DNA from: an uncultured bacterium
Lineage (GTDB): Bacteria; CSSED10-310; CAZUFC01
Direction of reading: 5' to 3'
Assembly (NCBI GenBank): GCA_964619725.1
Contig: CAZUFC010000103.1
Span: 1 to 30,407, forward strand
Length of the DNA: 30,407 nt
Shown: in pieces, positions 1 to 26,218 of the stretch
Layout of the letters: each line of letters begins with the position of its first letter
Numbering within the stretch: the first letter of the stretch is position 1
Notes under the pieces: model-generated
What the model saw: only the letters and a program-made list of their open reading frames with translations
What the model was told of the DNA's origin: nothing
Database searches by the model: none
Program-made: the position numbers and the translations under genes

Positions 1-2493
1 CCCGTAAGGCGGATCAGCGCCGGGGACAGGTTCCAGATTTATGCCTGTATAAACCCGGCATAAATTGGCCCGGTCAATGTAATACAGTTCGACTCGATCG
101 ATATCATTTCCTGAAGCGATAGCGAAAAGGTAAATATGACCGCCTTCGGCTTCGGCGATGCTGCTGTTCATCCATCCTGCGGCTAGCATAAAGGGCCGTT
201 CGATCGCCGGCGTCGGCGTTATAGTCCCTACTGCGGTCGGAGAAGGGGTGAATGAAGGTCCGACGCTGGGAGTTAAAGTAGGCGTCCCGGTCGAAGTCGA
301 CGTCGGCGACAGACTTGGCGTAGAACTGCACGTCGCCGTGGGTGAAAGAGTCGACGTCGGACTGTTCGTCGGAACCGGCGTCGTCGTTACGGTGTGACTC
401 AGGGTCGGGCTCGGCGCCGGGGCGGTTGCGTAGATAAGTTTGATATCCTGCTGCGAACCGTTTTTATACAGCACGTATGGAGAATCATTCGAATCCAGTT
501 CAAGTATGACGTTCGATTCTATGGAATATTCCTGATCGAACCGGAAAGGACCGTGCCAGCCGCCGGGACTGGAAAAATATATATAAACCCCGCTAAAATC
601 CTTCCAGAATGCATAAGCCAGCCATACTTCATCTTCAGAATCAACCCTGACGGAAGGATAGACTTTGTATCCTTCGTCAAAAAGAGTCAGGTCCCACGTA
701 TCGGTATATCGTGCCAATATTAATCCCGTATCGTTATCGCTGTAGGCCAAGTAGACCGTCCCGTCGCTCGCCACATCAATGGAACTTATCTTCCCCGTTC
801 CCAGCTCAGGTTCGCTTACTATTTCCAATTCCCAGGCGGAATCCGAATAATGCGCCAATCCCATGGCTGCAGGACTGGATAAATACCCTATATAATACTC
901 CTCATCGTTAAGAACCTTCATGGACATGACTTCAGCCGCGTTTGAGGACTCCATGGTGACGCATTGAGGATCAATCCATTCTTCGCCGAAACCTTTAGTG
1001 AAGTAGACTCCGTTTTGAGGCAGAAAAGCGACGTACATCTGATCCCCGAAGGAATCCATAACGAAGTTGTAGCACAATTGTCCGACGAACTCGTCAGAAG
1101 TTATTTCCCAGACGCCTTGATCTTTCCAGGCGAACCGCAACCCGTCGCCGACTGAATACACCACGCATGGACGATCCTGAGAATCAAGTTCCAGCTCCAC
1201 TTTCAGCAATAGTGCGGGGTAGTGTTTCACCAGTTCGAATTCCCATCCTGAACAGTCACGGTATCCATAAATAATGTTGTCCTGATCGTCGGAAAAAGCT
1301 ATGTGAACGTTGTCGTCAGAATCCAGAGCGATATCATAATCAAAATAGGAAAGATATTCCTCAATATTTTCAATGGTCCAATCATCGCCGTCCTTGACGG
1401 CGGTTTTAAGGTATTGATCGTCCCGACTGACGAAACTCACGACCGGCCGGTCCGTTGAATCATAAGCCAATGAAGCGCAGGCAAAGGAATGATTGTCCGT
1501 ATCTATCTCGTCGAAAACCCACACGCCGTCCTCATTCGTTAAATAAACAAGTTCCTTGTAATAACTCCGCCCGTAAGCTATACCCGGATTTCCCTCAGAA
1601 TCAAAATCAAGACAAACGGTAGGCCGATAAGCCCTCATCTGAGACGTTTCAAATATGTTGACCCACTCCATTTCCCAGGAAGTCCCGTTCCAGTAAACAT
1701 AATTCAAATAGCCGCTGTCTTTGCCGTCGACCTTCTCTTCGTCGTCCATGTACAGAGCGAAATGAGGTATCTGTTGGTTTTTAAGTTTCAGAGAAGTATA
1801 AAAAGAAGTTCCCCCGTACAGAATTTCATGAAATTCCCACGTCGATCCGTTGAATCGACAGTATTTTACCTCTCCGTCATTATTTGCGTCATAAGTAATA
1901 TGAATCCTGTCTTCCGAATCGACGGCTATGGAAGGATATTTGCCGCCAACTGAGCTGTCTTCTATTTGTTGAATTTGCCAGTCACCCGTTTCATTTTTGT
2001 GAAATAAATATAATGAAGATGAGTAATAAGCGGATATCCAGGGATTGCCATCTGAATCATGGGCTATACTGCTGGGAGTCAGACGAAAGGTTTCCTCAAT
2101 TATTACGTCTATTTCCCAAGTACCTGAATTTTTCAAAGCATACCGGTATGTTTGATCCAGTTTATCGAAATAACTTAAATGAATTCTATCTATAGACTCT
2201 ACGCTCATGGAAACGAAAGCTGTTCTTCTGTCGCTGACTAATTCAACTCGCCACTTAGGACCTTCCCGATAATATACCTTCAACTGATCTCCGCCTGTTG
2301 CCAGCACCCGATCGCCGTCCGGCATAACATGCAGACAACGATGCGGAGCCCAGCCTGAAAACCAGGCCGGACATTTTACGCATTCCAGCTTCCATTCGAG
2401 GTCAGCAGATGTGACGCTGAAAAATACTGCAGCGTGAAGCAGGAGCATTAACATTGCTGTTTTCCGGGAATTTAAAGAGATTGAGTAAAACAT
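1..2493 (-). CDS. Large secreted beta-propeller-repeat protein with Pro/Thr/Ser linker and C-terminal domain; 3'-partial, runs off the window start (>=831 aa)
   Basis: Hand translation of both ends from ATG at 2493: signal-peptide-like start (MFYSISLNSRKTAMLMLLLHAAVFFSVTSA); repeated blades such as SIAHDSDGNPWISAY, PSIAVDSEDRIHITY, CLDFDSEGNPGIAY; P/T/S linker at ~205-426; then RPFMLAAGWMNSS...DIDRVELYY in the same frame to position 1. Its absence from the ORF track fits a frame with no stop inside the window. Confidence 0.88.
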   Translation of the reverse strand, partial: MFYSISLNSRKTAMLMLLLHAAVFFSVTSADLEWKLECVKCPAWFSGWAPHRCLHVMPDGDRVLATGGDQLKVYYREGPKWRVELVSDRRTAFVSMSVESIDRIHLSYFDKLDQTYRYALKNSGTWEIDVIIEETFRLTPSSIAHDSDGNPWISAYYSSSLYLFHKNETGDWQIQQIEDSSVGGKYPSIAVDSEDRIHITYDANNDGEVKYCRFNGSTWEFHEILYGGTSFYTSLKLKNQQIPHFALYMDDEEKVDGKDSGYLNYVYWNGTSWEMEWVNIFETSQMRAYRPTVCLDFDSEGNPGIAYGRSYYKELVYLTNEDGVWVFDEIDTDNHSFACASLAYDSTDRPVVSFVSRDDQYLKTAVKDGDDWTIENIEEYLSYFDYDIALDSDDNVHIAFSDDQDNIIYGYRDCSGWEFELVKHYPALLLKVELELDSQDRPCVVYSVGDGLRFAWKDQGVWEITSDEFVGQLCYNFVMDSFGDQMYVAFLPQNGVYFTKGFGEEWIDPQCVTMESSNAAEVMSMKVLNDEEYYIGYLSSPAAMGLAHYSDSAWELEIVSEPELGTGKISSIDVASDGTVYLAYSDNDTGLILARYTDTWDLTLFDEGYKVYPSVRVDSEDEVWLAYAFWKDFSGVYIYFSSPGGWHGPFRFDQEYSIESNVILELDSNDSPYVLYKNGSQQDIKLIYATAPAPSPTLSHTVTTTPVPTNSPTSTLSPTATCSSTPSLSPTSTSTGTPTLTPSVGPSFTPSPTAVGTITPTPAIERPFMLAAGWMNSSIAEAEGGHIYLFAIASGNDIDRVELYYIDRANLCRVYTGINLEPVPGADPPYG
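205..426 (-). repeat. Pro/Thr/Ser-rich low-complexity linker within the 1-2493 CDS
   Basis: Minus frame reads TAPAPSPTLSHTVTTTPVPTNSPTSTLSPTATCSSTPSLSPTSTSTGTPTLTPSVGPSFTPSPTAVGTITPTPA; the + strand VGVGV-type ORF is its shadow. Confidence 0.85.
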
Positions 2494-11507: not shown

Positions 11508-11572
11508 GCTTATGCCTCCTTTGCTTTGTTAAGCCTGAACAGCAGTGATTCCAGAGATTTTCTTTAATCGCA

Positions 11573-14401
11573 TCAACTCATTTTTTCCTCTAAAACCATC
11601 CCGATAAGCAGAGAAGCGGGAGGAAACGTGATGATATACTTGAGATAAACCTCCAGGAAAGCTCTGGGATTCCGGGAAGTTCCTTCGATGAACGCCGTAA
11701 GCTGATCGACGAATCCTTTATTGACAAGCCCCACCTGTTCGCCGTCGAACAACGAATAGGCCGTCAGACCGACCAGGCTTAAAAACAAAGCCAGGATATT
11801 TCCGACAGCCCATACACGGGACCAACGCCTGAAATAACTCTCATTGCCGAACAGACGATTCGTCTCTCCCGATAAACGGTCCTTGATGACCAGGTTGATA
11901 TAAAGCCAACCGCCGACGACCACGAGAACAGTCAAAAACAGCGTCGACTGCCAGGTCGCTGCCGCGTAATAACTCCAGATATCACTGTTTCCTCCGACCA
12001 GAAAACAAACCATGTATCCGACTATGGCTGATAATATTATATCGGATCGCCTGCGCACCCAACGACCCATCTGAAGAAAACCGAAACGTCGAAATTTATT
12101 TCGGTATAACAATCGATCTGCTTCAAGCGCCATCGTCCAGGCAAAGCGCTTTTTCGACCACTCCTGTAAAAAACGTACTTCCTTTTCGTCCGGCTGCTCA
12201 CCCGGAAAATCCTCCATAATGATCCTGAACAGCTCATTCTCATCTCCGCCTTCAGCAGTAGTCTGTATATCGCGCAAACGATTGACCTTATAATCGCAAC
12301 GTTCTCGAACCATATCCAGTTGAATCGCTGATGCTTCCCTGTATATTTCCGGAAAATATCTTATTACCATCCCTTCAAGTTCACGCAGATTCTCCAGCAG
12401 CTCTGCAGCGATATCAAATGCCGTTTCAAAATCGCTCAGATTCGCATTCTCAAGAAGATAATGCAAATGCCTGATTCTCTTCATCAAGTCGCCGGCTTTA
12501 TGGGCCAGAATAGATGACCGGCGGGTAAGTCCTTGCTCCATCACTTGTATAACTTCTTCATCTGTCGGAAGCAACTCATCGTCAGATGAAATCATTTCGC
12601 AGAACAAGGAGGGGCGTATAATTCGACAAAGTACATCTTCATTAACGGCAAATTCAGTATCGATGCTCGCCGCTAAATCAAACTGATCCATTAGACGAGC
12701 GCCTGTTGTATCTCCGATCTCCGTGAAATAATTCGTCAAGCTCTTGATTTGCTCTGTCAATATGTCATTTTCATATTTTAAAGCGACTTCCTCGTCTTCC
12801 GCCATTGTTTCCGCAACATCAAGCATTTCGATCATGATCTCCAGTTTGCTTTTCAGCTTGCTGTCGAAAGAGAACGAAGACATCTCTTTGAATATCTTCG
12901 TCAAGGGGTCCAGGTAGAGAAGTGTCCGCACATCATTGAAAAAACGATCCGGGTCTTCGTTCAATGCCGCCTGGAGCCTGTAAAGGCATAACGTCGACAG
13001 GTCCTTCACCATTGTGGACCGCAGAGAGGATGACTTCAGCGTCCTTAGAGTCATAACCCATACCGGCGATAAAAGACGCGTGTCCTGTTTGCCGTGAGCA
13101 TCCGCTGTCAGTATGACATCCTTTATACCGCGAAGGATGAATGTTTGAATATCGAGATTATTCGACGAAAGTTTAAATAATTGATGGAAAAGAGGAAATC
13201 TTCTGTTGACTACGCTTACCTTTTTGCTTTTTCGTTGAGCGCGATTCTCAAAATCATTTATTAATGCCGTTGCGGAAATTATAATCATAATCTGCAATCG
13301 CCTGGGCAGGACGGAGTAATCAGTTGAGAAAAAAGACCTTTTCAACAGTTTGTTTTCCATCATGTTAAGTTGATTCTTAAGATTAACGGAAGATTCCCGA
13401 AAACGGGCCCAGAATATGACCGAGTTGACGAAATCTTTCATATCAGCATCCAGATCGTCAATACGGCATAACGCTCTTATTTTCTGCTCAAATTCAGGCT
13501 TCCAGGGCAGTGCGATTACTGCCGTCAAAAAACCGCTCTCCGATACGTTCATTCCCGCACCCAGCCTCTGAAAAAATTTATCCCGAAACGCGTCGCTCAA
13601 AACATCCTTGCCGTTTTTTCCGGGCGGACCCAGCAGACTTTTCATCAGTCTGGTCACTGAGTTGAACCAGGATTTAAGATGAATTGATTGTATGGTTGCT
13701 TGTTCGGCTGTTTCCAGCAATGTCGATGTCCAGCCGGCCACGGTTTCGGCATCCGCTATTCCTGTTGACGCCATAGTTTCCAAAACGCCGGGCAAACTGA
13801 CGATCCAGAACGGTTCGCTCCTGGCTGCCTTCAGACACTTTGAACTGTCCGAAAAAACCGTTTTCTCCAGATCCTCCAATGTGAAAAATCCGTTGCTGAC
13901 CGCATCAGGCAGTCCCCAGACCATGCTGGAAAAGACTGCCGCTATCCCGCCCTTTCCCAGATAACGCCCCGCTTTCCATCCTTTCACTACCATCCCGCTG
14001 AAATATTGAAGAATGGTCATTTTTTGAAGTAAATCAGCATTCGGCTCTTTCCCCAACTTCTCTTTTACCTTATTGACCCCGATTCCTTTTCGGCATACCG
14101 GTACGAAAAATTCCTCCTTCGGATCAGCATAACTCATCAATGCCGTATGAGCATGACGAAAGCGATGATGATCCTCCCAATCAAGTATGCCGTCCTGAAT
14201 CTCTTCAAGCAAAACGGCATCAACACGAGCCAGGCGACCCAGCAATCGACTCGAAGAAACGAATATTTCTACCGATTCAGACCTGTAAGCATCCAGAAGA
14301 AAATCGCGGAGTTCACATCTTTCCGATTCTTCGAGGTTAATCCATTCTTCCGGTTCCGGAGCGCCGTTCAATCGCTGTAAAATAGTCTGAGATTCCCTCA
14401 T
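11573..14401 (-). CDS. 942-aa hypothetical protein: large alpha-helical cytoplasmic region plus ~4 C-terminal TM helices
   Basis: Long ORF. Hydrophobic segments IILSAIVGYMVCFLVGG, LFLTVLVVVGGWLYINLVI, VWAVGNILALFLSLVGLTAYSLF and YIITFPPASLLIGMVL occur only in the last ~150 aa. Confidence 0.85.
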   Translation of the reverse strand: MRESQTILQRLNGAPEPEEWINLEESERCELRDFLLDAYRSESVEIFVSSSRLLGRLARVDAVLLEEIQDGILDWEDHHRFRHAHTALMSYADPKEEFFVPVCRKGIGVNKVKEKLGKEPNADLLQKMTILQYFSGMVVKGWKAGRYLGKGGIAAVFSSMVWGLPDAVSNGFFTLEDLEKTVFSDSSKCLKAARSEPFWIVSLPGVLETMASTGIADAETVAGWTSTLLETAEQATIQSIHLKSWFNSVTRLMKSLLGPPGKNGKDVLSDAFRDKFFQRLGAGMNVSESGFLTAVIALPWKPEFEQKIRALCRIDDLDADMKDFVNSVIFWARFRESSVNLKNQLNMMENKLLKRSFFSTDYSVLPRRLQIMIIISATALINDFENRAQRKSKKVSVVNRRFPLFHQLFKLSSNNLDIQTFILRGIKDVILTADAHGKQDTRLLSPVWVMTLRTLKSSSLRSTMVKDLSTLCLYRLQAALNEDPDRFFNDVRTLLYLDPLTKIFKEMSSFSFDSKLKSKLEIMIEMLDVAETMAEDEEVALKYENDILTEQIKSLTNYFTEIGDTTGARLMDQFDLAASIDTEFAVNEDVLCRIIRPSLFCEMISSDDELLPTDEEVIQVMEQGLTRRSSILAHKAGDLMKRIRHLHYLLENANLSDFETAFDIAAELLENLRELEGMVIRYFPEIYREASAIQLDMVRERCDYKVNRLRDIQTTAEGGDENELFRIIMEDFPGEQPDEKEVRFLQEWSKKRFAWTMALEADRLLYRNKFRRFGFLQMGRWVRRRSDIILSAIVGYMVCFLVGGNSDIWSYYAAATWQSTLFLTVLVVVGGWLYINLVIKDRLSGETNRLFGNESYFRRWSRVWAVGNILALFLSLVGLTAYSLFDGEQVGLVNKGFVDQLTAFIEGTSRNPRAFLEVYLKYIITFPPASLLIGMVLEEKMS

Positions 14402-14689: not shown

Positions 14690-16978
14690 TTAAATTCCTT
14701 TTAGTTTATTACCGTTTTCCGCTAATATCAAAAGCTTGTCTCCCTCCCTTGCCTGATAATTTTTGTCTTCGCCCACAGGATTGGTCATAATGCGATATGT
14801 TCGACCTTTCGAAGTATTTTCTTCTATCTGTATAGCCATCAGCATCGTATCTCTCTCCCTGAGTAGAGAAGAGATTTCATCGAATGTGTTGCCTTTCAGT
14901 TTGCTGTTTGAGGCGATTTCACGCGAGTAAACCTCGTTGGTTTCGCTGAAGGTCAGTATTTCACTGATAAAGCGAGATAAGCCCTGATTCATGGCGGAAT
15001 GAACGATCAGTTTTTCGCTGATGTCTCTTGTGCTGATTATTTCATCGCATTCGGCATTTTCAAGATGTATCCTGTTTTCCGGGTTCATTAGCTCCGCTAT
15101 TGTATAAATGCTTGATTTGCGCTTGCCGCTTCTGATTAATTCATCGCAGTATTTTTCAATGGCAAGTACGGACAAAACGGTCGTGTCGTCACAATGAGGG
15201 TTGGCGGGATTGGAAAGAATTAATGCTGTCTTTGCAGTCAAAAAATTCGCTTTGTCGAGATCGCTTCTCACCGTCGCCTTCCCATTGACGTATCCCGCGT
15301 ATTTGTCATCCAACCGGTTTTCCATGATAAAATCAGGATTATCGCCGTTCGGCGCCAGTATGACGATTTTATTGCAGTCCGCCGCCTGTTCGTTCGTCAG
15401 GTTCTTTACTATACCGGGAGCTCTCTCGTTCCATCCGCAGATGATTATATGGTCCTTGCATTCTGACGGTTCCATACCCTTCACTCCTTGCAGCTTTTTG
15501 ATTATTTTGTCGGAAACGAAAACTCCGCCCAGCGCAATTAAGCCTCCAAAACCGATGAAGGGCAGAGTGGCTGCCGCAACCTTTCCCACAAGTGTTTGCG
15601 GAAATCGCTGTTCATTATACCCGCAGCCGGAAAGAACATAGAGCCATACCAGAGTATCCTTTATGTCATAGTAGTCCTGAAGAACCGCTCCCGGTTGCTT
15701 CATTTCATATTGTGTCTCAACATGTTGGATTATGCGGGCATCCAGAAGCAATAGAGACAGGATAAACAATAATCCCAAACTATATTTGTGCCGTTTTAAC
15801 CAGTGAAAAAAACTCAATCCCAGTCCCGCACTTCTCCTGTTCCCCGGGAATCTCTTTCCCTTAAAAAACAAAGGCCCGGTCAACAGAAAAATGAAGATTA
15901 CAATAGGAATAAAAATGATGATCCACAACAGGTTGGAATACCAGGAAGATTCGATCATTCCATGTTCACGATAATACTGCCTGGCTCCTCGATGCAGATA
16001 AACGGACATTCCGGTCAAAGCTGAAGCCCGGGAGATATTCCCGGCTATCGAAAGTTTGTTCTTCAGCAGTTCAAGCGATCCCTCATTAAAAAGTATATCC
16101 AGTAATCGGTAAACCAAAACAGGATTCATGTCTTTGTGCGCTGCCAGCAGAGCGCGTATGCCTACTCCTTTCACTCCATAAGGCTGTTCAATATACGTGT
16201 TGGGTTCAATGCTGCTGGAACAATAATAAGGATATTTCTCTTTTAATTTTTTTATATATTGATCATCAATCGACAGCAACCGGCCTCCGGAACGCCTGAT
16301 TGCCTGCACCACGCTGACTGTGGGGACTCCCGCCGTTAAAAAGGCAGCATCGACGGGCGCAGAGACCCCGTAAGACAATATGTCGTCGAGTGACAGATTC
16401 CTTTTTTTTATATCAGATAAACCGATGCCGTGAATCGTCAGAATATGCTGAGCATTGAATTGAGTTCCGCTGTTCTCTTCTCCGATCGAAACGATTTTTC
16501 CCTTTAAATCGCTGATGCTTCTTATATCGTCACAGTTGAAAACAAGGATATGTACCGTTTCTGTATATAGCGATGCAATGCCGGTAAGACAATCATGAGA
16601 TGTCTCGAACATCCCGACTCCCTCACGAAAACAAAAGGCAACGTCATTTTGTATAAACGCCAGATCCGCCGAACCATTCAAAATTTTCTCCGCATTTTCG
16701 ACTGAACCAGCGGATGACTGAACTGATACAACGCTGTTGGGCGACCCTCTTTCAAATATAGCCTGGAGACTCTCAGCCAGCGGATAATAAGTCCCATTCT
16801 CATGGCCTGCTGAAATCCTTATTTTTAAGCTCTGAGAGAATACGCACGGATTGCAGACCATAAGGACGATTGACCATCCGAGTATAATTCGTGAAAGTCT
16901 TGTGATACTATGCAAGAATGACTTCCAGAACATAGATGCTGTAACTCTCTCGAGTCGCAATTTCACATCTCCCGACAT
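14690..16978 (-). CDS. TAXI-family solute-binding domain fused to a 2TM/pore ion-channel module and RCK (TrkA_N/TrkA_C-like) gating domain
   Basis: TAXI motifs SAGHENGTYYPLA, SSAGSVEN, DLAFIQND, IASLYTETVHILV, DLKGKIVSIGEENSGT, LHRGARQYYRE; two TM helices; pore-helix/filter-like TLVWLYVLSGCGYNEQRFPQTLVGK; inner helix; RCK motifs DHIIICGWN, VNGKAT..DLDKAN..AKTALIL, IAELMNPENRIHLENAECDEII. Confidence 0.88.
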   Translation of the reverse strand: MSGDVKLRLERVTASMFWKSFLHSITRLSRIILGWSIVLMVCNPCVFSQSLKIRISAGHENGTYYPLAESLQAIFERGSPNSVVSVQSSAGSVENAEKILNGSADLAFIQNDVAFCFREGVGMFETSHDCLTGIASLYTETVHILVFNCDDIRSISDLKGKIVSIGEENSGTQFNAQHILTIHGIGLSDIKKRNLSLDDILSYGVSAPVDAAFLTAGVPTVSVVQAIRRSGGRLLSIDDQYIKKLKEKYPYYCSSSIEPNTYIEQPYGVKGVGIRALLAAHKDMNPVLVYRLLDILFNEGSLELLKNKLSIAGNISRASALTGMSVYLHRGARQYYREHGMIESSWYSNLLWIIIFIPIVIFIFLLTGPLFFKGKRFPGNRRSAGLGLSFFHWLKRHKYSLGLLFILSLLLLDARIIQHVETQYEMKQPGAVLQDYYDIKDTLVWLYVLSGCGYNEQRFPQTLVGKVAAATLPFIGFGGLIALGGVFVSDKIIKKLQGVKGMEPSECKDHIIICGWNERAPGIVKNLTNEQAADCNKIVILAPNGDNPDFIMENRLDDKYAGYVNGKATVRSDLDKANFLTAKTALILSNPANPHCDDTTVLSVLAIEKYCDELIRSGKRKSSIYTIAELMNPENRIHLENAECDEIISTRDISEKLIVHSAMNQGLSRFISEILTFSETNEVYSREIASNSKLKGNTFDEISSLLRERDTMLMAIQIEENTSKGRTYRIMTNPVGEDKNYQAREGDKLLILAENGNKLKGI
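15473..15489 (-). promoter_or_regulatory. Putative internal RBS (AAGGAG) and in-frame ATG (Met502) at the start of the RCK domain
   Basis: Minus strand reads AAGGAG TGAAGGGT ATG (8-nt spacer), in frame, just before the HIIICGW RCK motif; would give a 261-aa soluble RCK. Confidence 0.6.
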
Positions 16979-16983
16979 TGACT

Positions 16984-17085
16984 TAGAAAAAATTGTGAAA
17001 TATTTGACGAAAAAACAAAAGCCGATCGAAAAAATTCAAGTGATTTCGATATGTTAGGCTGTCCTTGTAAAGAGTCCTGAAGTTC
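16984..17085 (+). repeat. Dispersed repeat family B, shorter copy
   Basis: First half matches the reverse complement of 3211-3268; second half (atatgttaggctgtccttgtaaagagtcctgaa) matches 19807-19839. Confidence 0.65.
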
Positions 17086-17167
17086 AATGCTTCTAAGCCG
17101 ATATTCCATAGTTAATGAAAAATCCTTATTCGACGACATATTACAGCTTTAATGCAACCAAAATAAT

Positions 17168-17316
17168 GGGGCTGATCAAACAGTGGTTACACTTCTTTCA
17201 AACCGTTTGAAAGTTTTTTTCAGTAATCGGTATCGCAATCGGGATCGAAATTGAAACGAAATGATGGGATATTCTGTCGAATTGTAACCTCAAAAGTCGC
17301 ATTTTTGATCAATGCC
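17168..17316 (+). mobile_element. MITE-like family A, copy 2
   Basis: ggggctgatcaaa...ggttacacttctttcaaa...gtaatcggtatcgcaatcgggatcgaaa...gatattc...attgtaacctcaa...gcatttttgatcaatgcc. Confidence 0.75.
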
Positions 17317-17454
17317 GCAATAATTTTCTCAAGGAAAAATTTATGATTCTCACCGGTGACCCGGTTTTACTCCTTTCGATAAAAAATAAAATTTTCGATA
17401 GAAAGCGCGAGTCCTCACAAAAACAGATTCTTCCTATACATGAACATAAATGAT

Positions 17455-19032
17455 TCACTTTGTCAACAGGTCGGCGGTCAGTCCCGAATGGCGCAACGTT
17501 TTTTTCCACGAATCAAGCATTTTAGTGCGGCTGACCGCTCCGTCGTAATCATCCCAGAGATTATCGAATCCCTTTCCGGTGAATTTCAGTTTTCTCAGCA
17601 GCCAGTTATCAAGATATCCGCCCTTATGATCGCAACGGATCGTCATGCTGTTATTCTTGTAATCGATGATCAAACCGCCGAATTGAACCGCAGTTTCATA
17701 AATCAATTTGCCTATCGGGGGACTCAATCGAAGATAATCATCATCTCGATTCAATTTTATTTTGCCGTCGAATAATGTGGTTCTATCGAAAAACCGATCG
17801 GGAAAATCAACGTAAAGAGAATTGAGACTTTCCGTACAGGCCACGGCTGAACATGATTTGTCGGCCGTAAGAAAAAAGACTCCTTTATGAAAGTCGATCC
17901 GGCGCAGGAAATTCTTGAACTGGTCCCGGATGATCATGTCGCCGGTCGATACTTTGCGCGGCCGGTATACCGGTGGAGAAGACGACCTTGCATGAGCAGA
18001 GCGGGATTTATTGTCCTGATTTGAAGAAACGCCGGCATCGGCTCGACTGGATAGAGACTTATCGAACATTCGCTTCATCTCCTCGGAAATTTTTCTTTCT
18101 ATTCTTTTTTCCAGATGAGGAATATCACGGCGCAATCCCTGCAGTTCAATTTTAGTATCCAGTATAGGATTGGCGTCGCCCACGATGAAAACGCATACGC
18201 CGGCGATGTCAGCGCAATGACTCAATTCAAGGACCTCCTGCAATGCCCTGAATCCCATGCGACCCTCATGCTCCAAACCTCCCCGGGAATCCCTGATGTT
18301 GGCGGATTCCTCCAGTTCATGAACGGCCGCTCGAGGGATCACCAGGAGTATCCAGTTAGGCGTGTTGAAGCATTCTCGAGGATTAATGAGAGACAGCGCA
18401 GGAATCAGATGTTCGCTTATGGTGCAATTATAGAGAATATTGGTATCAAGTCCGATAACCGCATCGTCGAATTGAGATATTTTTCCAGCAATGCTGCGCC
18501 AGTTGTCCGGCAGGATCATGCCGGTACGGTAAAGCGCCTGCTTAAGACGATCATAATCAGGTTTGGCTTTTTTAAACAAAGTCTTATAGACTTTAAGCCC
18601 CTCATCACCGTCAATAATGGAATACAATTCATTCCCGTCAGAATTTCGCACGACGACCTTTTCATCCTGCCAGAGCAGCCAGTCCAGCAGCAGATGATAA
18701 ACAGGATAGGGAACGAAACCGTCGCCGATTATAGAGCGGTGATCGGAATCGGAAAAAGACAAAGGAGCCTGCAATCGTAAAGTCAATTCCATACCGGTAG
18801 TTCGACAGCCGAACAAGGAAACAGGCTCAATAACGCTGTCGGCCAATACAGCCCCCAGATTCTCCTGAACCAGCCCCGCAAGAACAGCAGCCCGGGAAAT
18901 ATTGCTACCGAAAGCTCGAAGCCTGACAGTATCCGAATTGCGGCTGAAACGGGAAAAACACTCCAGTGCATAGTCGTAAATCTTCTTACCGCAAACATCC
19001 AAAAAAGCTTGCCCGTCATTGTTATTCATCAT
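17455..19032 (-). CDS. Alba-like nucleic-acid-binding domain fused to a PIN-domain nuclease
   Basis: N-terminus GKKIYDYALECFSRFSRNSDTVRLRAFGSNISRA...GMELTLR parallels archaeal Alba (GKKPVMNYVLA...EIVIKARGRAISKA...IEIAIR). PIN acidic motifs GLDTNILY, IPRAAVHELE, GDMIIRD, FLTADK. ATG at 19032/19029 preferred over TTG at 19062. Confidence 0.75.
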   Translation of the reverse strand: MMNNNDGQAFLDVCGKKIYDYALECFSRFSRNSDTVRLRAFGSNISRAAVLAGLVQENLGAVLADSVIEPVSLFGCRTTGMELTLRLQAPLSFSDSDHRSIIGDGFVPYPVYHLLLDWLLWQDEKVVVRNSDGNELYSIIDGDEGLKVYKTLFKKAKPDYDRLKQALYRTGMILPDNWRSIAGKISQFDDAVIGLDTNILYNCTISEHLIPALSLINPRECFNTPNWILLVIPRAAVHELEESANIRDSRGGLEHEGRMGFRALQEVLELSHCADIAGVCVFIVGDANPILDTKIELQGLRRDIPHLEKRIERKISEEMKRMFDKSLSSRADAGVSSNQDNKSRSAHARSSSPPVYRPRKVSTGDMIIRDQFKNFLRRIDFHKGVFFLTADKSCSAVACTESLNSLYVDFPDRFFDRTTLFDGKIKLNRDDDYLRLSPPIGKLIYETAVQFGGLIIDYKNNSMTIRCDHKGGYLDNWLLRKLKFTGKGFDNLWDDYDGAVSRTKMLDSWKKTLRHSGLTADLLTK

Positions 19033-19123
19033 GAACCTCCCGCTGGAAAATTTTTTCCACAATGAAACCGTTGATCTGTTGAAACTATGATAACAGAAAT
19101 AGCGGAAAGAGTAAATAAATCCC

Positions 19124-19266
19124 GGGACTGATCAAAACCGGGTTACACTTCTTTCAAAACTTATGACAGTGTGCTTCAGTAATCGGGGTCGGTATCGAAA
19201 TCGAAACAAAATGATGAGATATTCGGAAAAATTGTAACCTCAATAGACGCATTTTTGACCAATGCC
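19124..19266 (+). mobile_element. MITE-like family A, copy 3
   Basis: gggactgatcaaaaccgggttacacttctttcaaaac...gtaatcggggtcggtatcgaaatcgaaac...attgtaacctcaa...gcatttttgaccaatgcc. Confidence 0.75.
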
Positions 19267-19601
19267 TAAATCCTCTGGCGGTTCAGGAGCGATAACTATC
19301 TGCATACTCATGCGCCTGATGCAAAAAATATTCTCACGCCGAGGTTTCTACGCTCCGTCAATAGTATCTGTTATTCCAACTTTCATGGAATGCGTTACCC
19401 GTCATTTCCCATCGTCCTTGATATGAGTCATTACGATTCAGTTCAAATTTTCGAATACCGGAAGCCCTCCGATACAAGCATATTTTTGCATAAACTTCTC
19501 CTGCATCTGCGTTGAATGAGTATTCGCCCATGTTAAAAGTAATTTACCATTAATGCCATAATTGCAGTTTATGCGGTTATTGCTATATATTTCGCCGACA
19601 G

Positions 19602-19680: not shown

Positions 19681-19874
19681 ACCGGTTTGTCCAAAAACTC
19701 GCAACGAATTTCGATTAAATCAACGCTCTTATGCCGGATATAGGGGGGGCAAAAAACTGCACAATTATTATGCCGAGACTCAGTGTAAAAAAATCAATTG
19801 ATATCAATATGTTAGGTTGTCCTTATCAGGAGTTCTGAAATTTGAATCGACAATCGAGTTTATGGACAGGCGCT
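19681..19874 (+). mobile_element. MITE-like element (family B body) with TGTCCA(T/A)AAACTCG-type ends
   Basis: Left tgtccaaaaactcg versus right cgagtttatggaca; internal part similar to the reverse complement of 3091-3190. Confidence 0.6.
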
Positions 19875-20176
19875 GACTTGAACCTTAATCGGGCAAGTCC
19901 GGATATTTGAGGGAGGCTTGGTGATGAATATCACGGCTGTAAATGAAAATGAACTGTTTTTTTTGACAAAATAGAGATGAGTAATCAGTTTAGCGGCATC
20001 ATCAGGGAATGTTCATTTGAAATATTAATGAGAAGCTTAAAGCGGCAGTTGGGAAAATCAGTCGTTTGATGTGAGAAACCCACCGAAAAGTGAGTTGACT
20101 GATAGAAGCATCTGATTTAGAATTTACATGGAAATTTCATGGATGTCGCGGCGAAAATCTGAGTAGTAAATTGATC

Positions 20177-21760
20177 ATGAATTGCGTTAAAGTGCAGCAA
20201 AACATTAAAATCAAACTGGAAAATCTCTCCAGGAGCTTCAATAATAAACCGGTCATTTCAAACCTCAATCTGGAAATCAGAAAAGGTGAATTCCTTGTAC
20301 TGCTGGGTAGATCGGGCAGCGGAAAATCCGTGCTGATGAAGCTGATGCTGGGATTGCTGGTTCCGGATGAGGGCAGAATCGTAATCGATAATCAGGACAT
20401 TTGGAAACTAAGCAAAAAGCGGCGGCTGATGATCGCGGAAAATTTAGGCGTAGTGTTCCAGGGCGGCGCGCTTTTTAACGATATGACCGTAAGGGAGAAT
20501 CTCAAAGCGGCTTTGAGCGATCAAACGGAGCAGCCGGAAAAATTGATAGAGGATATCGCCGAATCCTGCAATTTTGACCTTGATCTGATTGACGGTTTGC
20601 CGCATGAATTGAGCGGCGGATTGAAACAGAGAGCTGCGGCGGCGCGTGCTTTAATAAGGGAGCCGGATTTGCTTTTTTTTGATGAGCCGACTTCGGGACT
20701 GGACCCGATGAATTCAGAAACGATATCGAATTTCATAAGGCAATGCCATGAAAAGAAGAACACCACATCAGTAATGATAACTCACGACATGCGAAGCGCG
20801 GCCATAGCCGCTGACCGAATCTTGTACCTGGACCGAAGAAAAAGAACCTGCATTGAACTGATAAACGAAGCGGAACTGGCAAAGCTTCGATCAGGCGACG
20901 ATCCCGTCAAAAAGGTTGAAGAGAGTATCAGGGAGAAGATCGAATTAAAGACATCAGAAAAAGGAGAAAAAATCCAGCCGGCTGGTCGACATGAAAAAAG
21001 CGCAGTAAAATTATTAACCGAACAAACGGCTTCCGTTTTTTCAACCATCGGTCATTTGTTTACGTCGTTAGGACGGCTGAGGTTGTCCTCTCCGCCGGAG
21101 AAGACGCTGAGTTGTCTGAGCAACGTAATAATTCAATCGTTGCCTTTGATCATAACGTCGGGTTTTCTGATAGGATTGGCTTTAATCCTTTCCACGATAG
21201 TGGGATTGGCGGAATACGGCGCGGAGCATGAAGCGTCCAAAATTTTAGGGGCCACGCTGGTGAGGGAAGTCGGTCCGATACTGGCTGCTTTATTACTGGC
21301 GGGAAGAATCGGAGCATCCATAGCTTCGGACATAGGTTTAAGGACGACTGGAAAGGATTTCGATGCCTGGAGAACAATGGGGAAGGACCCGGATGAATTG
21401 TTTTACACGCCTTTGTTCATTTCCATTATTATCGGATTCCCGATTCTGCTGATTGTAGTAGATGCTGCGGGCTATTTCGGAGGCTTGGCGGGATATGCCG
21501 GAATATACGGATATTCGGCTGTGGGATTCAAAGCAGGATTCTTTGAACTGATCAACTGGAATGATGTCCTCTGTACATTCATAAAAGGACTTATCTTCGG
21601 ACATATCATCCTCTCGATAGCCTACCAGGCCGGTATGGACGTCCTGCCTCCCGCCAGAACAATCGGAAAACAGGTAACTCATGCGGTAGTAGCGGCATCC
21701 CTGGTCGTCATCGCCGCTAATTTTTTTATCATGAGGATTTATTACTTATTAACGAGTTAA
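20177..21760 (+). CDS. Fused MlaF-like ABC ATPase and MlaE-like permease
   Basis: Walker A GRSGSGKS, Q-loop VFQ, signature LSGGLKQR, Walker B LLFFDE, H-loop ITHD; then MlaE-like LVREVGPILAALLLAGRIGASIASDIG with multiple TM segments. Confidence 0.9.
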   Translation: MNCVKVQQNIKIKLENLSRSFNNKPVISNLNLEIRKGEFLVLLGRSGSGKSVLMKLMLGLLVPDEGRIVIDNQDIWKLSKKRRLMIAENLGVVFQGGALFNDMTVRENLKAALSDQTEQPEKLIEDIAESCNFDLDLIDGLPHELSGGLKQRAAAARALIREPDLLFFDEPTSGLDPMNSETISNFIRQCHEKKNTTSVMITHDMRSAAIAADRILYLDRRKRTCIELINEAELAKLRSGDDPVKKVEESIREKIELKTSEKGEKIQPAGRHEKSAVKLLTEQTASVFSTIGHLFTSLGRLRLSSPPEKTLSCLSNVIIQSLPLIITSGFLIGLALILSTIVGLAEYGAEHEASKILGATLVREVGPILAALLLAGRIGASIASDIGLRTTGKDFDAWRTMGKDPDELFYTPLFISIIIGFPILLIVVDAAGYFGGLAGYAGIYGYSAVGFKAGFFELINWNDVLCTFIKGLIFGHIILSIAYQAGMDVLPPARTIGKQVTHAVVAASLVVIAANFFIMRIYYLLTS

Positions 21761-21776
21761 CAAAACGGAGGACAAA

Positions 21777-22406
21777 ATGAGTTCATCCAAAACGCCTATG
21801 ATTGTAGGACTGGCTTTCGTTGCCCTTACGCTTCTAGTGATCGTCATCATAATCGGCGCGCCGGGATTCAACATACAGGTTAAATTTGATGATTTGAACA
21901 AGATCAGGCGAGGCGACAACCTGTACATGAACGGACAGGTTATAGGAACGATAACGGGAACAAAATTAAAATCGCCCGGCGAGGGCATTATAAAAGTGAA
22001 CATCAAAAATCAATACAAAGATTTCCTGAATCAATCCACCATCTTCACCATAGCCGGCGATAAATTTATAACGGGAAGAAAATGCCTGCTAAGTAAAAAC
22101 AGAGATCAATCCGCTCAGCCGGTAGAATCAGGACATGTTTACGAAGGCGTGGGAAGGATAGAATTCGAACTGGTCCGACTGACTGACGGCGCCGGCAGAA
22201 TATGGAACGGTTACCTCAAGGATATGGCTATAGAATCAATCGACAAAACAGGCAAACTTTCAAAAGATGTGATGGATAAAATAAAGGAGCTGGAACGGGA
22301 AAATCATGATGAAATCGTCGGTTTTATGGATCAACTCAAAAAAGAAGTCGAAAATCTAACGCCGGAACTCAAGAAACAGATTGATGAGCTGATGAGAGGG
22401 TTTTAG
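21777..22406 (+). CDS. mlaD: MCE/MlaD-family protein
   Basis: N-terminal TM anchor, MCE-like VKFDDLNKIRRGDNLYMNGQVIGTI...DKFITGRKCL, helical tail; GGAGG RBS; directly follows the MlaF-E fusion. Confidence 0.75.
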   Translation: MSSSKTPMIVGLAFVALTLLVIVIIIGAPGFNIQVKFDDLNKIRRGDNLYMNGQVIGTITGTKLKSPGEGIIKVNIKNQYKDFLNQSTIFTIAGDKFITGRKCLLSKNRDQSAQPVESGHVYEGVGRIEFELVRLTDGAGRIWNGYLKDMAIESIDKTGKLSKDVMDKIKELERENHDEIVGFMDQLKKEVENLTPELKKQIDELMRGF

Positions 22407-22656: not shown

Positions 22657-24426
22657 TTAATGAGTTATTTTCATCACTGTCACAATCTCAGGCGGTGAGT
22701 TAAGCTCTGGCATGGGAACAGGTTTGAAATCACCCGTTTGCATAGATAGTTTCAGAAAATTATGTAACTTTAAATTGACTACATTTTCCACAATTATTAC
22801 GGCAATTTCAAACTCATAACCGATATCCGCTGAAATACCATAATGAACGGTTAGTTTCCATTCATTATCTCTTGGATCTACTATAGCCTCTCCCTGCGGC
22901 CACCACATTCCGTGAAATCCTTTATTGCAATGTACAAGCACCCAAAGGTGTTCGCCAGACTTAAGTTTAGCAGAGCCTTTCACGATTCCGGTTCTTCCTA
23001 CACTTTCCCCTTCCATCGGTCGATAAATCGTTATTCCAGTAGACATTGGGATTACTCCTGCGCAATAAGTATTATGAATATCTTCAAATAAAAAATAATA
23101 TTTCTGAGCAGCTTCATCAAAATGATGATTTTCTATATCGCTGGATGCGGCAAGATATAGCTGTTGGTCGAGCTGAGCAATACTTTCATCTGATAATTGA
23201 AGTAAAATGTCATTATAAATTTCGCGAGCTTTGTTTATGTTTGTAGGATTCCCAACAGAAAAAAAATCGTTCGCCTCACAGACTTCTTTAAGCAATCCCT
23301 TCTCCTTGAGTTCTTCGCCGACTGAGGATTTTTTACGCTTCCTTACTATGTTTAAGCTGATAGGTTCACACATCCATACACAATTTGGTTCGTTACTTAT
23401 TATGTCACCAGGATTAATACCCTGATCCTTCGTAAATAATCCAACGTTTATAGAGTAAGCTCCCTCTTCCTGGATTATTATTTCTCCGTAAAAATTACCG
23501 TTGGAGTTTGTCCTGAGTTCTTGTTTTATAAGGAATACGCGCTTATTTTCATCCTTAACGATCGGCAAAAGTTGTAAATTATTTAACTCAAGGAAATTGC
23601 CGACATTTTTAAGGTAGCTGTCCTTATAAAGAAAAGATAAAAATCCGCTTATTTCAATTTTTTCTCTTTCATAACTTTTATACATTTCCCTGGGATTTTT
23701 CATTTTGATTTCAATTTTCAAATCGTTTAATTTTGCATCTGAAATCATCGGTTGCTGGAAAGTTTTACCAATATCAGGAGTTCTCATAAGAAATTTAATA
23801 ATATTTTCGGCGCTGACGCCAATATGAAAATGTTTAGTATTTGTTAGCATGCCAACGACTGACTTTTCCCTAAATATGGGACTCCCTGACATACCGGGGG
23901 TAATCGTACCGCCGCTGAAAACAATATCAGTTTTATACCTTACAAATCTGCAGTTCCTTTCAACATGCCATAATCCATCAATTGCACCTGGAACACCGAT
24001 AACAGTTATTTCATCATTATCCTTGAGAATGACATCCGAATCTATTTCAATTGTTGAAATTTTTCTAGCTTGAATATTCTTGTCTAAATTGAGTCGCAGT
24101 AAGGCAACATCAATGCCCGAATCGATACTTACAAGGCTGGCTGGAAAATTTTCTTCCACACCATAAAGGCGCACTCTGGGATTTTGATCCAAACAAATAT
24201 TCTCACTCGAAGATATCACATGACTTGCAGTTAAGATGTATAGGATGTTGTTTTTTTTCGAAATTATAAAACCAGTTCCCTCACCGCAATCACTTTCCAT
24301 TTGAACGACACAAGATTTCATATTTTCTGTTTCATTTCTGTCTATCAAATATTTTATCATCATTGCAGCAGGCAGAGAAATAATTGCTATTAATAAAATT
24401 GTTACAAACGATGATCGTTTCGTCAT
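22657..24426 (-). CDS. Membrane-anchored or secreted trypsin-like (S1) serine protease with long C-terminal extension
   Basis: GTGFII, ILTASHV (His), IDVALL (Asp), GMSGSPIF (Ser); N-terminal hydrophobic helix; AAGGAG RBS at 24434-24439. Confidence 0.88.
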   Translation of the reverse strand: MTKRSSFVTILLIAIISLPAAMMIKYLIDRNETENMKSCVVQMESDCGEGTGFIISKKNNILYILTASHVISSSENICLDQNPRVRLYGVEENFPASLVSIDSGIDVALLRLNLDKNIQARKISTIEIDSDVILKDNDEITVIGVPGAIDGLWHVERNCRFVRYKTDIVFSGGTITPGMSGSPIFREKSVVGMLTNTKHFHIGVSAENIIKFLMRTPDIGKTFQQPMISDAKLNDLKIEIKMKNPREMYKSYEREKIEISGFLSFLYKDSYLKNVGNFLELNNLQLLPIVKDENKRVFLIKQELRTNSNGNFYGEIIIQEEGAYSINVGLFTKDQGINPGDIISNEPNCVWMCEPISLNIVRKRKKSSVGEELKEKGLLKEVCEANDFFSVGNPTNINKAREIYNDILLQLSDESIAQLDQQLYLAASSDIENHHFDEAAQKYYFLFEDIHNTYCAGVIPMSTGITIYRPMEGESVGRTGIVKGSAKLKSGEHLWVLVHCNKGFHGMWWPQGEAIVDPRDNEWKLTVHYGISADIGYEFEIAVIIVENVVNLKLHNFLKLSMQTGDFKPVPMPELNSPPEIVTVMKITH

Positions 24427-24430
24427 TGCT

Positions 24431-25603
24431 TTACTCCTTTCGTCGTGGCAATATTACTTGTAATAATTTACCGGATGTCAAAATGCCAGAGATAGCAAAT
24501 CCGAAAACAATATAGAATTTTTTTAACTTATTATCATACCACAAAGTATCAAAAATCGATAACCTTAAATCTCGCTCGTGATCACCGCATAAGAGCTTAA
24601 TAACATCAGCTTTTCCACATATTGATATTGATAAGCTGATTTCAGAATTTTGTCCTGTTACAATATGTCCTTTTTCTATTCGAAAATTTTCCATTTTATC
24701 GATTTCTAAGAAATGATAGGGCTTGATTCCGATAGACGGCGCATCTGGATATATTGGATATTCCAATTGAAATTCTTCTAAAAAACTCGATACTATTTTA
24801 TAATGTTCGTCATAACTGCAGAATTTGATTGAGTCAACAGATATTCCCTGCCGAGGAAGAAGATTGATGAAATTAATGTTTTTTTCCGGTAAAGCTAGAG
24901 TCAGCGAATAGTCATTTCCCCATGATTCAGCACGAACACCTTCATCATTTTTCTGAGTTAATGAGAAATTATCGTTATCTTTATCAGAAATGCCATTCAA
25001 TAAAACATTGTTGTAGTGAACTTTGAATGAGTCATTAAGGAAGATTTTAGTCAATGATATCTCGTTTAAACTATTATGAATTTGAATTTTCAAATTTCTC
25101 TCTTTTCTAAATAAAGAAAGTTTAAATCGTGTATTTTTTACAGCCAATATTTTGTCGACCAATCCTGATTCAGTCATTTTGTGATGACTTTTTTTTGAAT
25201 TGATTTTTTGAAAATTTATAAAAGAAAACAACCTGTTTTCATTAGAACCATCAATAATAAGAGGGAAAGGATAAAACAAATTGTTTTTGTTGCATTTAAT
25301 TTGGGGAGCATTCTCTTTATTAATTTCTATTCCGTCGATTTTTGAAAAAAGTTGTAAAGATTCAAAATTGTTGATTCCAATTGAAGAAAAGGGAACTGAA
25401 TTCAGAATTGTACTCAGTTCATCATGAGGCATAGTTAGAGAGAATACAACATTTTGCAATGATATATTTGAATAAATTAGCGTTTTAACGGAAAACAGCA
25501 TAGTAAGGGGAAAGAGAAGCAAAAACAGAAAAGCTGTCCAATAATATTTAATAAACCATTTCTTTGATGAGAAAAAAATATCTTTAACAAAAACAAAAAT
25601 CAT
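24431..25603 (-). CDS. Hypothetical protein with N- and C-terminal TM anchors flanking a beta-rich soluble domain
   Basis: 390-aa ORF; TM-like YYWTAFLFLLLFPLTMLF and FYIVFGFAISGILTSG; ATGA overlap with the upstream stop; ends 4 bp before the protease start. Confidence 0.8.
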   Translation of the reverse strand: MIFVFVKDIFFSSKKWFIKYYWTAFLFLLLFPLTMLFSVKTLIYSNISLQNVVFSLTMPHDELSTILNSVPFSSIGINNFESLQLFSKIDGIEINKENAPQIKCNKNNLFYPFPLIIDGSNENRLFSFINFQKINSKKSHHKMTESGLVDKILAVKNTRFKLSLFRKERNLKIQIHNSLNEISLTKIFLNDSFKVHYNNVLLNGISDKDNDNFSLTQKNDEGVRAESWGNDYSLTLALPEKNINFINLLPRQGISVDSIKFCSYDEHYKIVSSFLEEFQLEYPIYPDAPSIGIKPYHFLEIDKMENFRIEKGHIVTGQNSEISLSISICGKADVIKLLCGDHERDLRLSIFDTLWYDNKLKKFYIVFGFAISGILTSGKLLQVILPRRKE

Positions 25604-26144: not shown

Positions 26145-26193
26145 TGCATAGGTTACACTAAAAAGGACAAAAGTCTGAGGAATTAACCCGACA
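26145..26193 (+). repeat. Left terminal inverted repeat
   Basis: tgcataggttacactaaaaaggacaaaagtctgaggaattaacccgaca; shares TGC, TAGGT, TAAAAAGGACAAAA and ACCCGACA with the reverse complement of 29740-29789. Confidence 0.88.
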
Positions 26194-26218
26194 TCTCCGC
26201 ACGAGTAGGAGATTGAAA

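Follow-up and report, generated by a model that had tools for sequence, protein, structure and literature searches.

What is an Alba domain doing at the head of a nuclease in a bacterium? The question is raised by a gene on the minus strand of a 30,407-nucleotide contig (CAZUFC010000103.1 of assembly GCA_964619725.1, analyzed at its full length and called the window here) from an uncultured bacterium of the lineage CSSED10-310. The Alba domain is considered archaeal and eukaryotic, and a preliminary description of this DNA had read the gene product as Alba fused to a PIN nuclease, a nucleic-acid-targeted ribonuclease (RNase) possibly acquired from archaea and possibly a defense effector. We find that this Alba-PIN protein belongs to a recurrent, rare and unnamed family, and that its nuclease body is that of the CARF-PIN effectors of type III CRISPR systems, with Alba in the position of the CARF domain. 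The relationship to CARF-PIN was absent from the preliminary description and is the main new result. The best reading of the window gene still seems to us that of a horizontally acquired, stand-alone PIN-RNase acting as a nucleic-acid-targeted conflict or defense effector, likely of the abortive-infection type, and we hold this reading to be about evenly poised between right and wrong.

The N-terminal Alba domain

The window protein was modeled with AlphaFold2 on a 60-sequence alignment of the family (A1). The full chain (pLDDT 86.8, pTM 0.87) forms four folded parts: Alba, a connector, PIN and a C-terminal domain (Table 1). Residues 10-87 of the model have the beta-alpha-beta-alpha-beta-beta topology of Alba (by DSSP, strand 10-13, helix 18-30, strand 35-41, helix 42-59, strands 61-73 and 76-87; pLDDT 89-96). 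In VIA superpositions the N-terminus fits solved archaeal Alba structures with Z 12.0-13.7 and a root-mean-square deviation (rmsd) of 0.9-2.8 A over 78-87 residues, compared with Z 9.8-10.1 for SpoVS, 9.0-10.8 for Rpp20/25/Pop6/7 and 8.4 for IF3-C, and Foldseek aligns the model with archaeal Alba entries at TMt 0.64-0.89. A family profile searched against PDB sequences returned 13 Alba matches (E 1.2e-10 to 3.4e-7, covering the full domain for the best) and no SpoVS at E<=1. The closer superposition on archaeal Alba and the profile matches argue that the modeled N-terminus is a true Alba domain rather than a SpoVS relative, which bears out the earlier assignment by the very comparison that had been suggested for it.

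The domain is divergent in this copy. Taken alone, the window protein scores 16.7 bits against Pfam Alba (E 0.0062, under the 25-bit cut-off) and E 0.02 against NCBIfam AlbA, and finds nothing meaningful among PDB sequences. Pfam Alba (PF01918) is matched by 48 of the 60 aligned relatives, with a best E of 2.3e-10, and two of the 60 also touch Rpp20. The family motifs GK[KR] and RA.G..IS[KR]A line up with solved Alba; in particular, G15-K16-K17 of the window protein and the GK[RK] of the family align with GKK or GNK of the solved structures. We take the Lys16/Lys17 pair of Sso10b, in the numbering assumed here, to be basic residues that contact nucleic acid. Thus fold, topology (rmsd 0.9-2 A), profile match (E 1.2e-10), motifs and a predicted dimer through the Alba domain (in a homologue, see below) are all shared with archaeal Alba (Sso10b, Sac10b; PF01918), whereas the classical form is a stand-alone archaeal protein of about 90-100 aa and the window domain makes up the first 90 residues of a 525-aa bacterial nuclease.

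A nuclease module in common with CARF-PIN effectors

The PIN domain is likewise more easily seen in the family than in the single protein. The window protein alone has no Pfam PIN match at E<=10, whereas PF13638 (PIN_4) is matched by 52 of the 60 relatives (best E 6.5e-8). Model residues 190-418 superpose on the PIN domain of MJ1533 (3i8o) with Z 13.8 and rmsd 2.9 A (136 of 140 residues aligned), and further structural matches are the YacL-like TTHA0540 (3ix7, Z 12.1), PINA (5f4h/5yww, Z 12.1), SMG6 (Z 10.3) and Nmd4. The acidic residues D196, E239, E241, D365 and D391 occur without exception in the 60 sequences. The alignment contains 24 invariant columns (D196-T197 of the DTN motif, E239/E241, D365, D391-K392 and Y445/E446/D468 among them), every one of which is retained in the window protein, and the acidic tetrad (D, E, D, D) appears complete. 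The PIN fold with four acidic motifs was therefore correctly recognized at first sight, as was the insertion within it, which is about 60 aa here and consists of a helix (289-328) followed by a stretch at about 331-360 in which 10-residue blocks have mean pLDDT values of 48-52. The length of this insertion varies among relatives and is greatest in the window protein.

What had been taken for a linker between Alba and PIN is indeed present, and it is more than a linker: a folded connector that is common to CARF-PIN. The C-terminal domain had been overlooked. It is an alpha/beta structure in the model (pLDDT 78.6 when modeled alone), for which the best PDB superposition has Z 3.4 and the best Foldseek PDB match E 1.3; these figures assign it to no known fold, yet do not imply a novel one. 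Other PIN domains of the PIN_4 class (MJ1533/PINA, 3i8o and 5f4h; TTHA0540, 3ix7; SMG6/EST1A, 2hww; Nmd4, 8rdd; Rrp44) have the same fold (Z 10-13.8) and the D-E-D-D tetrad, but their partners are ATPase plus KH, TRAM, 14-3-3-like domains or the exosome, and none of them is joined to Alba, to this connector or to this C-terminal domain.

The combination of connector, PIN and C-terminal domain is found instead in CARF-PIN. The window protein matches the PADLOC model CARF_m1--CARF_PIN weakly (E 2.7e-4), residues 154-204 aligning with positions 222-275 of 465, outside the CARF part of the model. The same model is matched by 22 of 60 family members (best E 1.1e-9), and CARF_PIN by six. Profile comparison extends the similarity: hhalign of A1 with an 11-sequence CARF-PIN alignment gave 98.1% and E 1.1e-13 over 247 columns spanning connector, PIN and most of the C-terminal domain (94% against a single CARF-PIN sequence), and the A1 hidden Markov model (HMM) matched a separate, module-only CARF-PIN open reading frame (ORF) at E 5.4e-10, HMM positions 286-474 included. 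Among multidomain structures, the model is matched best by SiRe_0806 of Sulfolobus islandicus in complex with cyclic tetraadenylate (cA4; 9jxw/9jxx), with a Foldseek E of 2.7e-5 and a VIA superposition of Z 13.7 over 289 residues (model 1..517 against chain 84..420) at about 10-11% sequence identity in the structural alignment. These structures are described here from their PDB titles, as we found no paper on them. Among the ORFs that fit the PADLOC CARF-PIN model, one of 427 aa is closely homologous to 9jxw_A (E 7e-100), and SiRe_0806 is thereby tied to the CARF-PIN family. The connector, PIN and C-terminal domain of Alba-PIN are thus homologous to the CARF-PIN nuclease module, with Alba in the position otherwise held by CARF.

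PADLOC CARF-PIN matches occur in 22 of 201 sampled genomes of the phylum Thermoproteota. In six of the 12 loci fetched from this phylum (L075, L077-L081), CARF (161-217 aa) is encoded by one gene and the module (336-341 aa) by its immediate neighbor, an arrangement that may reflect either a real split or a recoding site. Compared with the fused protein of L074, the split parts are 77-87% identical in L077, L078, L079 and L081 and 37-49% identical in L075 and L080. In another locus (L073), the ORF directly 5' of the CARF-PIN gene (299-1495, plus strand) looks by eye like a PIWI/Argonaute-type domain, a candidate only. Since the module is seen fused to CARF, with CARF in trans, fused to Alba and bare, we regard it as one chassis in four arrangements, and the nuclease module is autonomous. 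CARF-PIN and Alba-PIN both place a regulatory or targeting domain at the N-terminus, and in both the module also exists as a separate gene. They differ in that domain and in setting: the window gene has no adjacent cas genes, and binding of cyclic oligoadenylate (cOA) is not expected because the N-terminal domain is Alba, not CARF. PIN RNases figure among the cOA-activated type III effectors in the sections of the 2025 CRISPR classification considered here (PMC12669027).

A dimer is predicted as well. The homologue P0039 (448 aa, 41% identical) gave a homodimer with ipSAE 0.47 (median of three runs; best control 0.00). The same mark is attained by 20 of 30 homo-pairs of solved structure and by one of 23 proteins whose solved structures are single chains. 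Contacts agree between runs to at least 75%, with pLDDT of at least 76, and the interface comprises Alba residues 35-74 (helix 2, strands 3-4) together with invariant DD, NW and G positions of PIN, so that Alba pairs with Alba and PIN with PIN in the predicted dimer. The result may in part reflect the memory of the predictor, because Alba dimers are solved structures. The Alba-PIN protein probably forms a symmetric homodimer, to judge from this prediction.

Table 1. Features of the Alba-PIN gene and its product in the window
Feature	Position	Strand	Details
Whole ORF	17455..19032	-	525 aa from ATG 19032; 524 aa from ATG 19029; stop 17455-17457
GGAGG Shine-Dalgarno-like motif	19036..19040	-	Read from sequence; 3 nt before ATG 19032, 6 nt before ATG 19029
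Alba domain	18763..19014	-	Residues 7-90; G15-K16-K17 and R39-A-F-G-x-x-I-S-R-A line up with the Alba signature
Connector ("middle") domain	18508..18720	-	Residues 105-175; helix, three strands, helix; common to the Alba-less archaeal form and CARF-PIN
PIN domain (PIN_4 class)	17788..18477	-	Residues 186-415; D196 (DTN), E239 (HELEE), D365 (GD), D391 (TADK)
Variable insert within PIN	17947..18135	-	Residues ~300-362; tail of a long helix, then a stretch of low complexity and low pLDDT
Conserved C-terminal domain	17458..17781	-	Residues 418-525; Y445, E446, D468 invariant; common to CARF-PIN modules

Distribution and phylogeny of the family

In a word-indexed search, 5.8 billion clusters yielded 119 proteins at E<=1e-3, that of the window included, and an exhaustive HMMER scan of 1.84 billion representatives found 136 family members, 115 of them at <=1e-10 and 71 at <=1e-30, none longer than 635 aa. 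They come from bacterial and archaeal metagenome-assembled genomes (MAGs) covering at least eight bacterial and three archaeal phylum labels, so that the fusion is no one-off. Two of the 60 aligned members, both archaeal, carry an additional C-terminal cold-shock domain (CSD). Source names are "hypothetical protein" or "DNA-binding protein (Alba)". The preliminary description had allowed that the fusion might prove to be a common annotated family. That holds only in part, because a recurrent family does exist, but one that is neither common (136 of 1.84 billion) nor functionally annotated. We found no description of the Alba-PIN architecture in the searchable literature, although a supplement may list it. 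The main text of the PIN superfamily classification (PMC5499597) mentions neither Alba nor CARF, and Alba is not mentioned in the sections considered of the 2025 CRISPR classification (PMC12669027). Of the 15,161 Alba proteins in a 2024 survey, only 55 are bacterial hits, each of them from an uncultured bacterium or a metagenome assembly; a fusion to PIN goes unmentioned in the main text of that survey (PMC11621453).

In a tree of 31 proteins (a quick method, with SH-aLRT support only), the window protein falls in a bacteria-only group, unresolved and with weak support (82-85), together with a bacterial MAG protein that is its nearest relative (43% identity) and with proteins from Actinomycetota, Bacillota, Chloroflexota, Minisyncoccota and Bacteroidota. 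In a second clade of the Alba form, Thermoproteota, Brockarchaeota and Thermoplasmata stand side by side with Acidobacteriota and a Desulfobacteraceae MAG. Sixty other genomes were searched for the gene, 13 of them from the same phylum as the host and 47 from the same domain only, with no close relatives among them, and it was found in none. Because it is a singleton in this comparison, it was likely acquired horizontally. As for the suggested acquisition from archaea, its nearest relatives are bacterial proteins, and a recent origin from archaea is therefore not shown.

The end branch of the window protein, 1.14 against a median of 0.34, is the second-longest of the 31, and one could ask whether the gene is an inactive or decaying relic with no present function in its host. 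The sub-threshold Alba score, the dispersed repeats on both flanks and the insertion sequence (IS) elements nearby would fit such a history. We consider it very improbable all the same, as the frame is intact over 525 codons, all 24 invariant columns are kept and the whole chain is confidently modeled.

Neighbors of the Alba form in other genomes

Genome contigs yielded 71 family loci, of which 25 (L002-L025, L028) hold the Alba form (three of these split or cut by contig ends) and 46 hold shorter matches, considered in the next section. Conflict-type neighbors are present at 12 of the 25 Alba-form loci, in about six independent lineages. Eight have a TIR-like gene directly upstream, and five of these eight have caspase-like genes as well. 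In five Bacteroidota loci (L015, L019, L021, L024, L025) the gene directly 5' is unannotated, encodes about 434 aa with an N-terminus resembling TIR and nucleoside deoxyribosyltransferase (PADLOC TIR E 6.9e-5), and often has a stop that overlaps the Alba-PIN start. With the exception of L019, these loci further encode a TPR histidine kinase and a LuxR-type regulator on the 5' side and a caspase-like cluster on the 3' side (for which the annotation comes from L024 and L023). A DUF4407-like protein lies downstream in L015 and a TIR-like+TPR-S protein in L025. In three Acidobacteriota loci (L011, L013, L023) a related TIR-like+S1 protein is directly upstream, and in L023 a caspase gene is directly downstream.

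Other neighbors are a type I HsdR (L028), a NERD-UvrD helicase (L008, PADLOC E 6.7e-73) and a CHAT protein (L018). In the Desulfobacteraceae MAG (L014, 5956-12695), Alba-PIN is 1.35 kb from an RT-Cas1 fusion (Cas1_IIIb, E 5e-134) and a CRISPR array of 18 repeats with a period of about 72 nt. This is the sole CRISPR-linked member among the 25, and a k-mer scan of 90 loci (L002-L092 without L085) and the window found an array in L014 only. Of the remaining 13 Alba-form loci, several are on short contigs; a HerA/TrwB-like ATPase is present in L003 and an SMC protein in L006, and L009, L012, L017 and L020 are annotated partly or not at all. No conserved small neighbor gene runs through the 25. In a Minisyncoccales MAG of the candidate phyla radiation (L007, 1733-8653), an intein-containing RtcB RNA ligase, a NIF3-like protein and DUF763 surround Alba-PIN.

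The Alba-less form and the case for a housekeeping role

The 46 shorter-match loci all come from MAGs labeled Thermoplasmata, Thermoplasmatota, Methanomassiliicoccales, Methanobacteriota or Euryarchaeota. Their proteins (about 365 aa, alignment A2) consist of connector, PIN and C-terminal domain, identical in plan to those of Alba-PIN (hhalign 100%, E 6e-77), but lack Alba. Unlike the Alba form, they sit in a conserved gene string, with L18Ae, prefoldin and FtsY upstream and DUF6015 downstream (annotated on L029); the upstream clusters recur in 24, 24 and 22 loci, and 13 loci share the one downstream. The Alba-less form was found in 16 of 151 sampled genomes of its class, always at 545-690 bits, and appears to be vertically conserved within one archaeal sub-lineage. 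Stand-alone Alba genes lie elsewhere in all three of the genomes with this form that were tested.

The string looks like housekeeping rather than defense, which brings up a serious alternative: that Alba-PIN is an endonuclease of RNA processing or decay, in which Alba would tether PIN to a structured cellular RNA (rRNA, tRNA, signal recognition particle RNA or mRNA), much as the Alba-fold proteins Rpp20 and Rpp25 sit on the P3 stem of RNase P/MRP. The conserved string and high scores of the Alba-less form, the free Alba genes, the RtcB gene beside Alba-PIN in L007 and the likeness of the N-terminus to Rpp20/25 (Z 9-10.8) are all consistent with it. We nevertheless consider it rather unlikely for the window gene, given that the Alba form is patchy over phyla and was found in none of the 60 genomes compared with the host, that the host has a normal bacterial RNase P RNA, that many Alba-form loci have defense-type neighbors and that the module is homologous to the CRISPR-linked CARF-PIN. 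The gene order in a single archaeal lineage may also reflect shared descent only.

The likeness to RNase P/MRP is a conceptual one, an Alba-fold RNA-binding unit (Rpp20/Rpp25, Pop7/Pop6) teamed with an endonuclease on structured RNA, and we compared in the same conceptual way the PIN-like protein-only RNase P enzymes PRORP and HARP. The window domain is nearer to archaeal Alba than to Rpp20/Rpp25, and its PIN is PIN_4/CARF-PIN-like, unlike the NYN domain of PRORP or the PIN_5 of HARP, neither of which is among the 50 entries listed in the VIA structural comparison. A protein-only RNase P is disfavored because the host genome has a full bacterial RNase P RNA.

Proposed mode of action

If Alba-PIN is a conflict effector, a mechanism can be sketched from its parts. 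The protein would be a probably homodimeric, metal-dependent PIN endoribonuclease on the three-part CARF-PIN chassis, in which Alba replaces the cOA-sensing CARF. Once paired, two Alba domains would bind a nucleic acid as their ligand, which could be DNA or else RNA that is structured or double-stranded, and the ligand-bound pair would either recruit the paired PIN active sites to RNA or license cutting, so that the Alba dimer acts on binding nucleic acid as the CARF dimer does on binding cA4. We infer here an RNA substrate, a targeting or gating function for Alba and a role in defense. A stronger form of this proposal, which we think possible and advance tentatively, is that Alba is the sensor proper, the PIN RNase being switched on by a nucleic-acid ligand with no cOA messenger. 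Phage double-stranded or structured RNA, or R-loops, would be candidate ligands; the Bacteroidota and Acidobacteriota proteins would be the effector arm of a TIR-like/caspase conflict system; and, in a corollary of the "Rosetta-stone" kind, the Alba-less nuclease of Thermoplasmatota would have the free Alba of these archaea as its partner in trans.

Several observations weigh against a defense role. The strongest evidence against a purely defensive reading of the chassis is the context of the Alba-less form. The surroundings of the gene in L007 look like RNA repair by analogy, and RNA repair or processing would fit that locus equally well. The TIR-like assignments are weak (PADLOC E 4e-5 to 7e-5; Pfam Nuc_deoxyrib_tr 0.0089), and the eight TIR-linked loci are not independent because they come from two phyla only. 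In the window itself, Pfam and PADLOC scans of the ORFs found no TIR-like, caspase or cas genes, the Alba-PIN gene has no conserved partner there, and PADLOC gave nothing significant for the window protein besides the weak CARF_PIN match. The two Cas10/Csm1 genes of the host genome (C183:887-3427 and C10:6524-9328; 640 and 500 bits) are both on contigs other than that of Alba-PIN, although they indicate that type III CRISPR signaling is probably present in the organism. Elsewhere in the host genome only distant TIR-like domains were found (E 2e-9 to 5e-7, on other contigs), which are no evidence of a partner.

Finally, the PIN domain taken singly finds its best match in a helicase family that acts on DNA. 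MJ1533 (3i8o) and PINA (5f4h/5yww), at the Z scores given above, are among the top PIN matches, entries titled "archaeal RuvB-like Holliday junction helicase", and archaeal Alba binds double-stranded DNA as well as RNA. One might therefore imagine a DNA-directed nuclease, with Alba on duplex DNA and PIN nicking or cleaving flaps, junctions or foreign DNA. Extra RNA-binding domains around the family (the CSD of two in 60 members and the S1 of the Acidobacteriota partner) point the other way. So do the PIN_4-class relatives of known substrate, SMG6 and Swt1, which are RNases according to the main text of PMC5499597, and the type III-pathway PIN effectors, which are given as RNases in the sections considered of PMC12669027. 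A DNA target seems to us improbable.

The locus and its host genome

The gene is a single open frame on the minus strand (17455-19062 when counted from TTG). The ATGs at 19032 or 19029 are the likely starts, to judge from their spacing to the Shine-Dalgarno-like motif in Table 1; the public copy of the protein has 524 aa, that is, a start at 19029. The ORFs in its flanks are all small, at 25-68 aa, and several fall within copies of a dispersed repeat. The next gene downstream on the same strand, after 475 bp, encodes an NMT1_3/RCK membrane protein, and upstream about 1.1 kb with no ORF >57 aa precedes the divergent MlaF-MlaE fusion and MlaD. An Rfam scan of the whole window gave no matches. 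A promoter and terminator scan found seven, against 7.1 expected from shuffles, and we therefore claim no transcription unit. The stretch occurs in four DNA runs, all from one microbial-mat study, with no RNA run among them.

A PIN domain with a complete acidic tetrad could also suggest a VapC-like toxin whose antitoxin is missing or has escaped recognition. VapC has the PIN fold and the tetrad in common with Alba-PIN, which is about four times larger, however, has four domains in its 525 aa, and belongs to a PIN_4/CARF-PIN-like subclass rather than to the classical VapC PF01850. No small co-directional gene abuts the window ORF, no antitoxin-like gene is present in either flank (475 and about 1100 bp, with no ORF >68 aa), as had been noticed from the outset, and the other Alba-form loci share no small neighbor. 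We give the toxin hypothesis almost no credence.

The dispersed repeat is about 150 nt long and lies on both sides of the Alba-PIN gene in direct orientation (17161-17321 and 19117-19271), with further pieces at 17029-17084 and 19787-19842. Copies are 77-88% identical, and at least 40 were scored genome-wide on many contigs, from 724 first-look candidates. With no Rfam match, the repeat may be an element resembling a miniature inverted-repeat transposable element or a repetitive extragenic palindrome, or else a small-RNA family.

Farther out, three co-directional giant ORFs (1038, 1373 and 942 aa) fill 4269-14401 on the minus strand; they have no Pfam or PADLOC matches, and the 942-aa one has a C-terminal hydrophobic region. 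An 831-aa ORF at 1-2493, which runs off the window, is likewise unannotated. The downstream neighbor (14690-16978, minus strand, 762 aa) joins NMT1_3 (a TAXI/TRAP-like solute-binding domain), a membrane segment and RCK/TrkA_N/Castor-type domains, an unusual architecture of binding protein and channel regulator. On the plus strand at 20171-22406, MlaF (ABC ATPase) and MlaE (permease) form one 529-aa protein, whose best public homologue is only 39% identical over the ATPase half, followed by a short MlaD. GC content is low (30-36%) at 23-26 kb, in a stretch that takes in two unknown ORFs and the 5' end of the gene (22657-24426) for a 589-aa trypsin-like peptidase. After it, 4-10 kb from Alba-PIN, come two transposases of the rve type and a primase-like gene (CHC2 zinc finger and Toprim). 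The region 22657-29749 looks in sequence like a mobile or variable one.

The host assembly is 9.17 Mb, 90.9% complete and 6.5% contaminated, with no 16S rRNA assembled. It contains a bacterial type-A RNase P RNA (300 bits), which, with the Mla genes, agrees with the diderm bacterial context proposed in the preliminary description.

Implications

The interest of this finding lies in the family more than in the locus, because the window copy is solitary and probably horizontally acquired. In many bacterial "Alba" hits of this kind, the Alba domain turns out to be the head of a nuclease whose body is that of the CARF-PIN CRISPR effectors. The family is thus a natural domain swap (CARF, Alba or none on one chassis) and offers a handle on how sensor domains gate PIN RNases. 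Alba-PIN is a sensor-swapped variant of a known effector type rather than a new type, and it suggests a new, signal-independent class of defense nuclease. In archaea, a link between Alba and RNA cleavage is proposed; if true, it would tie a chromatin and RNA protein directly to the cutting of RNA.

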